Below, in pieces: positions 52,671-54,181 of a stretch of 64,000 nucleotides of DNA (within the stretch, counting starts at the first letter, position 1; every line of letters begins with the position of its first letter). Source of the stretch: a virus; IMG/VR virus record IMGVR_UViG_3300034122_002202, positions 77,810 to 141,809 of that record. The stretch is one strand, 5' to 3'. The notes beneath the pieces are model-generated. The model saw only the letters and a program-made list of their open reading frames with translations, made no database searches and was not told where the DNA came from. Made by a program: the position numbers and the translations under genes.

Positions 52671-53303
52671 TTAAAACTCCTTTAGCCAAATGTAAGCACG
52701 AAAATCACCATATGCCCATATTAACTCAAATCCTTCAAGTTCTTTTTCGCTCAGAGGGTATTGAACTCCACTTAAAGAAAGTTCTTTATTGACTACCATT
52801 TTTACAGATTCGCCATTTTCAATCTTATTACGCCATGTGACTCGATTTAAAGCTGTTCCTAAATATCCACCTCTAGATTTCATTTTTTCTAAAATTACAA
52901 AAGCACCACCAATCATGCAATTGTTTTTTAAAGAATCAATAAATATTTCTCTTTTTGATGGATGGACAAAACATAAAGATAAAATACATGTGGCAAATGA
53001 AAACTCTTCCATATAAATATTGAGGAAGTCATCAAGAACTACTTCGCTTTCACCTTTATATCTTTCCACCATTTCTTTGCATTTTTCAACTGGTATATAG
53101 TCTATTTTTCTCGACTTAATCATACTTGATAAAGCCAACTCTACATTACCTGTGCTTGCCCCAAAGTCATACACATTTGTTTCTTCTGCCATAAATACAG
53201 ATGCAATCTCAGGCAAGAAATGATTAACAAAATTGCTATGCCAATATAATTGTCCAGACAAGTGTTCGTCAAACTTTTCTGCTATTTTTGAGAACTCAAA
53301 CAT
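52671..53303 (-). CDS. CmoA (carboxy-SAM synthase)-like SAM-dependent enzyme
   Basis: FEFSKIAEKFD...; VYDFGASTG; LSLCFV...R; GGAFVILEK; KIENG.S....K..SL.GV. Confidence 0.75.
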   Translation of the reverse strand: MFEFSKIAEKFDEHLSGQLYWHSNFVNHFLPEIASVFMAEETNVYDFGASTGNVELALSSMIKSRKIDYIPVEKCKEMVERYKGESEVVLDDFLNIYMEEFSFATCILSLCFVHPSKREIFIDSLKNNCMIGGAFVILEKMKSRGGYLGTALNRVTWRNKIENGESVKMVVNKELSLSGVQYPLSEKELEGFELIWAYGDFRAYIWLKEF

Positions 53304-54181
53304 TTATGATACTCCTTTAAACATTTAGCAATGTACCTAACTGAAGGTACATGCATACCATTGTATTTATATTTATCGGTATTTGAAGCGTTTTCAATAT
53401 GCCAATCGTCAGGAAAACCCATGAGTCTAAGTCTTTCTGTAGGTGTTACCCTGCGTATATTTCCATTAGAGACTACTAAATCTGTAAATGATTTATAATC
53501 TCTTTTTGTTAAGGTTGATGAAACTCCGCATTCATCAAATTGATCACTTCTTTGGCGAGTAAAGTAGGCAAAGGTTTCTTTGAACCACATGCCCTTTTTA
53601 AAATTCCATTCAAAGCTTTTTTTGACAAGTTCCACGCTTTGTTGACAGGCTCTAGTACTGCGAAGGCCAAACTGGAGTATATCGCTATGGGCGGGGATTC
53701 CATCACGGACTCCCAAAATGTAAATTCTACGCCTTCGTTGGGCTGTTCCACAGTATTGTGCATCGAGCGTTGTATAAGTCGCATCGTACCCGATGGAGGC
53801 AAGGTCGCTGAGAATCGTGTTAAGTCCTCTTCTAACGAGCATTTGGACATTTTCAATGACACAATATTTGGGCTGAACATCTCCAACTGCTCTAAAGAAC
53901 TCTTTCCACAAGAACGATCTTTTGCCATATATTCCCTCCTTTGATTGACTTGCTATAGATATGTCTGTGCAGGGAAAACCCCCAACTATTACATCAAATT
54001 GATCTTTTTCATACTTTACTTTTGTTACATCGCCATAATTTGGAATGTTTGGAAAGTTTTTTGCTAATACTTGAGAAGGATACTTGTCTAATTCTGCAAA
54101 AGCAGTCACTTCAAAACCTTCTTTTTGAAATCCTAAAGCAAAACCACCTATGCCCGAAAACATGTCATAAATTTTAAGCAT
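53282..54181 (-). CDS. C5 DNA cytosine methyltransferase-family enzyme
   Basis: FSGIGG (I), GGFPC (IV), ENV (VI), QRRRRIY (VIII), RRVTPTERLRLMGFP (IX); motif X atypical. Confidence 0.92.
   Translation of the reverse strand: MLKIYDMFSGIGGFALGFQKEGFEVTAFAELDKYPSQVLAKNFPNIPNYGDVTKVKYEKDQFDVIVGGFPCTDISIASQSKEGIYGKRSFLWKEFFRAVGDVQPKYCVIENVQMLVRRGLNTILSDLASIGYDATYTTLDAQYCGTAQRRRRIYILGVRDGIPAHSDILQFGLRSTRACQQSVELVKKSFEWNFKKGMWFKETFAYFTRQRSDQFDECGVSSTLTKRDYKSFTDLVVSNGNIRRVTPTERLRLMGFPDDWHIENASNTDKYKYNGMHVPSVRYIAKCLKEYHKCLSSQK
53509..53928 (-). CDS. Nested alternative-frame ORF in the MTase gene (putative accessory or beta-like subunit)
   Basis: AGGAGG at 53935-53940, 6 nt before the ATG; FSATLPPSGTM and LSKKALNGILKRA...LP motifs. 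Confidence 0.6.
   Translation of the reverse strand: MAKDRSCGKSSLEQLEMFSPNIVSLKMSKCSLEEDLTRFSATLPPSGTMRLIQRSMHNTVEQPNEGVEFTFWESVMESPPIAIYSSLAFAVLEPVNKAWNLSKKALNGILKRACGSKKPLPTLLAKEVINLMNAEFHQP

Follow-up and report, generated by a model that had tools for sequence, protein, structure and literature searches.

The DNA analyzed here, referred to as the window, is the final 64 kb of IMG/VR virus record IMGVR_UViG_3300034122_002202, a complete genome of 141,809 bp with direct terminal repeats; on its minus strand it carries overlapping genes for a C5-cytosine DNA transferase of 299 amino acids (53282..54181) and for a CmoA-like, putative carboxy-S-adenosylmethionine (Cx-SAM) synthase of 210 amino acids (52671..53303), which probably form a phage cassette for Cx-SAM-dependent carboxymethylation of cytosine that works without the arginine of the published transferase. 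Judged from the sequences and by analogy with known enzymes, this reading is given a probability of about 0.65; its support consists of homology, fold, gene coupling, lineage-specific linkage and purifying selection. The CmoA-like protein would, as its homology suggests, convert S-adenosylmethionine (SAM) and host prephenate to Cx-SAM; Cys71 of the transferase would attack C6 of a flipped-out cytosine, and the carboxymethyl group of Cx-SAM would pass to C5; the product, 5-carboxymethylcytosine (5cxmC), would mark recognition sites in the phage DNA and protect this DNA from host nucleases.

The reference for this reading is Synechococcus phage S-B43, where a phage CmoA makes Cx-SAM from SAM and prephenate, the C5-cytosine methyltransferase (C5-MTase) homolog CmoX uses Cx-SAM to form 5-carboxymethylcytosine, and the ligase CmoY adds glycine (Yang et al., Nat Commun, December 2025, PMC12783734). 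In the crystal structure of CmoX (PDB 8YF3), Arg350 occupies the place of Asn304 in HhaI and contacts the carboxymethyl group (PMC12783734). The original prediction, made for this stretch from its sequence alone, had proposed a non-methyl DNA modification system; by analogy with the CmoA-CmoX pair, non-methyl modification of cytosine C5 is still the best reading of the two genes.

The transferase ORF (open reading frame) falls clearly within the C5-MTase family, with 188 bits against PF00145 (cut-off 22; E 3.7e-55), 173 bits against TIGR00675, and the PC, ENV and QxRxR motifs in place. The motifs quoted in the original prediction can all be read in this ORF: FSGIGGF, a motif IV of the ordinary GFPC type (GGFPC, residues 67-71, with the catalytic-motif Cys71), ENV (110-112), QRRRR (148-152) and RRVTPTERLRLMGFP. 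For its AlphaFold2 (AF2) model, with a predicted local distance difference test score (pLDDT) of 74.7, Foldseek returned HhaI and HaeIII as the best PDB folds and the CmoX structure 8yf3 at rank 16 (E 2.5e-14).

Motif X of the window MTase reads KYKYNGMHVP (Y273-N274-G275-M276-H277-V278-P279), with Y-N-G-M in place of the canonical G-N-(S/A)-V when 24 members of its lineage are set against 22 canonical relatives. The motif had been quoted correctly as altered, and its flanks are indeed rebuilt, but the Asn is not lost: N274 falls on HhaI N304 and CmoX R350 in a profile-profile alignment with canonical relatives (hhalign), in a 46-sequence MAFFT L-INS-i alignment of these 24 lineage members and 22 canonical relatives, and in a HMMER profile comparison with M.HhaI. 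The lineage profile '...kl..nGmtvpvvkyi' lies over HhaI 'KQfgNSVVINVLQYI', and since the alignment stops at HhaI residue 318, the aligned HhaI residue is N304. By these alignments Asn274 is the canonical motif X Asn, retained, and the analogy that had been drawn with the M.MpeI mutant N374K is not directly applicable. A placement of Met276 at the R350/N304 position, obtained with a 2-residue gap in a four-sequence MAFFT alignment, was rejected, since all three alignments named above place Asn274 there. The changes lie around the Asn: two residues, including the Gly before it, are deleted, and after it Ser/Ala has become Gly275 and Val has become Met276. Gly275 and Met276 are invariant, and motif X is rebuilt alike, throughout what is called here the NGM lineage, whose signature is GFPC in place of SPPC and x-N-G-M in place of G-R-M. 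In HhaI, the loop residues around N304 have roles in cofactor binding; in the window enzyme the shortened loop before the Asn and the invariant Gly-Met after it, present in place of an arginine, would leave room for the carboxymethyl group, and might, speculatively, form hydrogen bonds with it.

The two genes overlap by 22 nucleotides (53282-53303), as the original prediction had stated, and the AAGGAG Shine-Dalgarno site of the CmoA-like gene (53317-53312) is located within the 3' end of the MTase gene, 8 nucleotides ahead of the CmoA-like ATG; from the overlap in this junction (53282..53317, minus strand, by direct sequence reading) the translation of both genes is expected to be coupled. 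A further site on the minus strand, AAGGAGG (54187..54193, also read directly), lies 5 nucleotides ahead of the MTase ATG. In six of six comparisons with close relatives, both genes are under purifying selection, with ratios of nonsynonymous to synonymous substitution (dN/dS) of 0.12-0.15 for the MTase and 0.02-0.07 for the CmoA-like gene; sequence comparison thus places the pair beyond chance, by purifying selection together with conserved pairing. A 139-amino-acid ORF runs in another frame inside the MTase gene (53509-53928, minus strand); the low dN/dS in the MTase frame makes clear that selection acts on this frame.

The pairing, on whose conservation the original prediction depended, holds throughout the IMG/VR members of the lineage: all 24 distinct MTases with a [NC]GM motif, 44% to 96% identical to the window MTase, have a CmoA-like gene directly adjacent, mostly downstream and overlapping (upstream in loci L060 and L062). 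When the metagenome locus L401 is added, a CmoA-like gene adjoins 25 of the 29 distinct NGM MTases, whereas of 44 distinct relatives with the canonical G-N-[AS], taken from the same scan, none has such a gene within 3 kb; the loci were collected through similarity searches and many pairs are related, and these counts do not represent independent events, which weakens the argument. In distant loci the pair are the only conserved genes (MTase 11 of 11; CmoA-like 9 of 11 by BLASTP and 11 of 11 by hidden Markov model). Since NGM MTases are linked in this way, canonical relatives are not, and nothing else is conserved in the distant loci, the product of the partner is likely to be used by the MTase. 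A search of representatives yielded 73,918 matches at E <= 0.001, of which the best 150 were read and 13 had the motif, with the consequence that the size of the lineage is a lower bound; this search added a divergent subgroup (MGTPC...ANGMS) with the paired locus L401 and the unpaired locus L370. Regular-expression matches to [NC]GM outside motif X (L077_3773, L077_5141, L106_4242) were dropped; 25 MTase ORFs without a recognizable motif IX, mostly N-terminal halves of split genes, were left unclassified at first, and one of these, the full-length L060_2522_3502, was classified separately. Two IMG/VR contigs of 206 and 221 kb (L028/L035 and L030/L033) each carry two separate pairs of an NGM-type MTase and a CmoA-like gene; protein identity to the window pair is 72%/66% and 77%/64%, and the MTases of these contigs have the motif X versions CGMDVH and CGMHVP, with Cys for Asn in both.

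Some NGM-type MTases have additional sequence. The long proteins P0035 (654 amino acids) and P0036 (593 amino acids) are interrupted right after the catalytic Cys (GGFPC|FAKG and GGFPC|FVKD), and an ORF cut by a contig end before motif X (L259:4148-4453) has an insertion at the same place (GGSPC|FVKGT); these three insertions look like candidate inteins.

A number of observations weigh against carboxymethylation. Every motif of an ordinary methyltransferase is present, including the motif X Asn, and of the features of CmoX the window MTase shows genomic linkage to a phage CmoA (the 22-nucleotide overlap, and the link in 25 of 29 distinct lineage members) but neither of the two by which the publication defines CmoX: SPPC, which is GGFPC here, and the Arg at the HhaI N304 position, where three alignments place Asn274. 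The R350N mutant of SpCmoX was inactive with both cofactors (PMC12783734), and Asn-bearing wild-type M.MedI was weak with Cx-SAM, with a kcat/KM of 0.04 compared to 14.5 for the N377K mutant (PMC12015181). Four of the 29 NGM MTases have no CmoA-like gene nearby. One is locus L370, a fragment of 48 kb with a completeness rating of 27%; the others are those of Vibrio phages S4-7, 1.052.A and 1.233.A (Vibrio or Enterovibrio hosts), in whose records no CmoA-like gene was found anywhere. The genus Vibrio has the Cx-SAM pathway, as a V. vulnificus CmoB is cited (PMC12783734), and these unpaired MTases would fit equally well with plain methylation and with Cx-SAM taken from the host, a source that SpCmoX was shown to use in E. 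coli. On the side of the partner, the score against the CmoA model is low and no arginine stands at either of two lid positions, as detailed below. Finally, the chemistry proposed for the NGM lineage is read from genes, and any account of how an uncharged pocket selects the carboxymethyl cofactor is a guess.

Much of this evidence would be accommodated if the MTase were an ordinary SAM-dependent enzyme producing 5-methylcytosine, or a dual-cofactor enzyme that mainly methylates, and if the CmoA-like protein had a different purpose, such as disturbing SAM-dependent host defenses by draining SAM or converting it; depletion of SAM by CmoA is raised as a possibility in the Discussion of PMC12783734. 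The retained canonical motifs and motif X Asn, the solitary NGM-type MTases of the three Vibrio-family phages and L370, and the poor performance of Asn-bearing enzymes with Cx-SAM together with the dead R350N mutant all point in this direction. Plain methylation is nevertheless considered unlikely: it leaves the contrast between 25 of 29 linked NGM MTases and 0 of 44 linked canonical relatives without a reason, as well as the translational coupling and the uniform rebuilding of motif X around an invariant G275 and M276, and a SAM-consuming enzyme would compete with the SAM-dependent partner that is translated alongside it. A complex prediction from MTase and CmoA-like alignments gave a score of 0.00 and carries no weight either way.

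The partner groups with CmoA and not with ordinary methyltransferases by sequence and by predicted structure, in agreement with its original designation. It matches TIGR00740 with an E value of 1.7e-19, although its 70.5 bits are far under the cut-off of 193.3; further matches are phrog_4752 (E 2e-31), E. coli CmoA in the PDB (E 3e-11, phmmer) and PRK15451 (E 6.6e-12; 45.4 bits, under the cut-off of 285), and a Pfam match was not obtained for this protein. The AF2 model (pLDDT 86) is predicted to have the CmoA-type Rossmann fold with lid, and the top five chains in Foldseek belong to 4gek, 4iwn and 1im8 at template modeling (TM) scores of 0.83-0.85 (4gek 0.84), so that E. coli CmoA and H. influenzae YecO are the nearest structures. 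The segment KIENGESVKMVVNKELSLSGV, cited originally as the end of the protein, is present but is followed by another 30 residues. The E. coli CmoA cofactor-site residues D62, G64, S66 and E164 are kept (hmmalign), as are R143, K165, K185 and K198; Y39 has changed to His and N132 to Ile. All 30 distinct phage CmoA-like proteins retain D62, G64, S66, R143, E/D164, K165, K185 and K198.

One of the two arguments of the original prediction concerned Arg199, which in E. coli CmoA forms a 2.7 Å salt bridge to the carboxylate of Cx-SAM (PMC3663124). With positions counted on the E. coli CmoA locus L006, this residue corresponds to Glu174 in the window protein by phmmer, MAFFT and hmmalign, so that the predicted Glu is confirmed and the salt-bridge residue is missing. 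The conclusion drawn from it, that a different SAM derivative is made, did not survive: the validated SpCmoA also has Glu at this place (BLASTP), and Arg199 is absent from all 30 distinct phage CmoA-like proteins (hmmalign). CmoAs that accompany a published-type CmoX have K-E-x-x-L-R in 59 of 61 distinct cases (L203-L282; L005:7083-7778), compared to K-R-x-x-L-E in E. coli; the Arg and Glu (E. coli R199 and E203) have traded places one helix turn apart, which may be connected with the kcat of SpCmoA, reported to be tenfold higher. The lid helix of the window protein reads K173-E174-L-S-L-S178-G, with Ser178 at the place of E. coli residue 203; there is no Arg at 199 or 203, whereas 59 of the 61 CmoAs of validated type have R203, and the alignments indicate that this K-E-L-S-L-S-G family has really lost the arginine.

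This loss gives some substance to the idea that the Arg-less CmoA-like proteins make a SAM derivative other than Cx-SAM, which the NGM transferase would put on cytosine C5 as a still unknown adduct in lake-phage DNA; positions 199 and 203 of the window protein are Glu and Ser, Arg and Lys are absent from both places in 23 of the 24 partners of NGM-type transferases, the residue at the N304 position of the transferase is not cationic, and the score is far below the CmoA equivalog cut-off. Residue pairing between synthases and transferases, summarized for 154 distinct pairs, makes the idea highly improbable. CmoA-like proteins with Arg or Lys at 203 accompany 65 G-R/K, one NGM and no RCSGI transferases; those without Arg or Lys at 199 or 203 accompany 64 G-R/K, 23 NGM and one RCSGI transferase. 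The Arg-less type (KELSL-x-G) is thus paired in 64 distinct cases with arginine-bearing SPPC transferases, and in the crystal structure that transferase arginine binds the carboxylate (PMC12783734). The proposed covariation of the R-to-E change with the motif X change does not hold in this direction, and by these sequence counts the loss of the synthase arginine does not go with the unusual NGM transferase. In locus L054, an NGM MTase is located beside a CmoA-like gene with R203 and beside another MTase in which Lys naturally replaces the Asn. The rest of the conserved CmoA residues remain in place, and since the Arg-less type mostly pairs with transferases that carry the arginine, Cx-SAM is the simplest assumption for its product.

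The same pattern is seen in a scan started from the Moraxella phage Mcat8 homolog; it gave 80 loci with CmoA-like proteins of the K-E-L-S-L-x-G type, of which 72 have a C5-MTase ORF, and all 72 MTases have SPPC-type motifs and G-R at the N304 place (70 by regular expression; L291 and L328 by eye). The CmoA-like protein of Mcat8 shares 47-52% identity with those of NGM loci L060 and L063. Two MTases of the canonical lineage beside CmoA-like genes have replaced the motif X Asn: L328:1207-2292 with Arg (CGRAMSINV), and L054:4497-5631 with Lys (FGKSMAVPV), the gene of which seems to be divided between two frames.

Further motif X variants occur next to CmoA genes. A third C5-MTase type with the motif 'YERCSGIP', which has no Arg, adjoins CmoA-like genes in L031:130-1167, L057:4504-5523 and L062:3896-4942, and is accompanied by an NGM-type MTase in L057 and L062. 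In Staphylococcus phage vB-SscS-F1 (L283:3465-5983) and in an SPbeta-like phage (L284:3474-5173), a CmoA with R200/R203 is found beside a C5-MTase with the motif X VVGGVINQL, where neither Asn nor Arg is evident; in vB-SscS-F1 CmoA and the C5-MTase are separated by a 271-amino-acid ORF that contains the PP-loop-like motif SGGNGS.

The remaining gene content of the genome bears on the role of the pair. The complete 141,809-bp sequence holds one C5-MTase and one CmoA-like gene; no CmoB and no ligase of the asparagine-synthase type (CmoY type) were found in it. With this inventory, the MTase is the sole visible client of the CmoA-like protein, and 5cxmC would be the end product, barring an unrecognized enzyme, as the genome has no CmoY-type ligase. 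The lack of CmoB also speaks against a role of the CmoA-like protein in RNA metabolism, for example in boosting the cmo5U tRNA modification of the host, where adjacency to the MTase would be mere gene order. PHROGs and some source annotations do name the family tRNA (cmo5U34) methyltransferase, and bacterial CmoA serves tRNA modification (PMC3663124); yet the CmoA-like gene adjoins, and mostly overlaps, a DNA MTase gene across lineages that share no other neighbor, and in the published phage system CmoA acts in DNA modification (PMC12783734). An RNA role is therefore given the smallest chance of the explanations considered here.

A terminator-like hairpin of 10 pairs followed by TGTTTTG (54228..54254, minus strand) is found between the MTase and a small upstream ORF; it is a pattern match from a consensus scan that returned 3 sites compared to 1.0 +/- 1.0 in shuffled sequences, and as such suggests that the cassette is the start of a transcription unit. 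The small ORF directly upstream of the hairpin (54267-54484, minus strand, by ORF reading) has its own AGGAGG site and encodes a Cys/Ser-rich and lysine-rich peptide. Other neighbors of the cassette, at 48972-50222, 50222-50842, 54612-55181, 55174-55671 and 55679-56956, include genes for a fusion of a GT2 glycosyltransferase with a methyltransferase domain, a DUF6445 protein, a 2-oxoglutarate (2OG)-Fe(II) oxygenase (PF13640) and a 425-amino-acid protein whose N-terminus is twin-arginine-like; in distant loci none of them accompanies the pair. The oxygenase-like and glycosyltransferase genes were rejected as parts of the cassette, because their pairing with it is not kept beyond close relatives.

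DNA nearly identical to positions 48000-57999 of the window is present, according to a k-mer index, in lake-water and freshwater metagenome runs dated 2016-2025. The index listed 24 runs, all in contig form, from lake, freshwater, aquatic or estuary water, with one marked only 'metagenome'; at least half of the sampled words were present in 11 of these 24, and 5 of the 11 may be the source itself. Neither an NGM-type MTase nor a CmoA-like neighbor was found among the best 80 of 552 relatives in a scan of bacterial genomes, and the scan thus pointed to no host.

If Cx-SAM is indeed the cofactor of the NGM lineage, SPPC and arginine do not define the natural DNA carboxymethyltransferases, and the published census, which counted 5,615 candidate CmoX with both the SPPC motif and R350 (PMC12783734), misses whole lineages by filtering on these two features. 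The C5-MTase pocket would then have a second, uncharged way to accept a carboxymethyl group, which matters in practice, since methylation sequencing makes use of engineered carboxymethyltransferases; the Vibrio-family phages with unpaired copies would be cases of reliance on host Cx-SAM. If the enzyme only methylates, its tight linkage to CmoA-like genes itself needs a new explanation.

Among known systems, the engineered enzymes M.MpeI N374K and M.MedI N377K demonstrate that C5-MTase scaffolds can move a carboxymethyl group from Cx-SAM to cytosine C5 (PMC12015181). These bacterial, CG-specific enzymes depend on the engineered replacement of the motif X Asn by Lys, whereas the window MTase keeps the Asn and alters its neighbors. 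For the partner, the best structural match is E. coli CmoA (PDB 4GEK, 4IWN; TM 0.84), with conserved SAM-binding residues; the window protein is about 37 residues shorter, 25% identical, and has Glu for Arg199, and the bacterial enzyme works with CmoB on tRNA. Literature searches found no paper on a natural DNA carboxymethyltransferase without the arginine; the supplementary CmoX lists of Yang et al. lay outside that search.

The CmoA-CmoX system of phage S-B43 shares with the window a phage CmoA homolog next to a C5-MTase homolog, the lack of CmoB, a Glu at the E. coli Arg199 place in both synthases and, as far as the model of the window MTase indicates, the fold of the transferase (8yf3). 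In contrast to CmoX with SPPC and Arg350, the window MTase has GFPC and Asn274, comes from another MTase lineage and is about 25% identical to SpCmoX; the CmoA-like protein is 25% identical to SpCmoA and does not have the R203 of the SpCmoA type; the window genome has no CmoY ligase; and the genes overlap in the order MTase, then CmoA-like. A closer counterpart in gene order and synthase type is the pair of Moraxella phage Mcat8 (KR093632) with its many IMG/VR relatives, in which a transferase with SPPC and G-R-M overlaps a KELSLSG-type CmoA-like gene: the MTase again precedes the overlapping CmoA-like gene, and the CmoA-like proteins of Mcat8 and the window belong to the same subfamily, with 31% identity and the same K-E-L-S-L-S-G lid motif, whereas the Mcat8 transferase has the SPPC and Arg of CmoX and the window MTase does not. 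By its sequence, the window MTase is a member of the C5-MTase superfamily and not a CmoX by the published definition, while the partner falls within the CmoA family in the broad sense; a system of CmoA and DNA transferase has already been published, and what is new here is a transferase lineage without the published signature residues.

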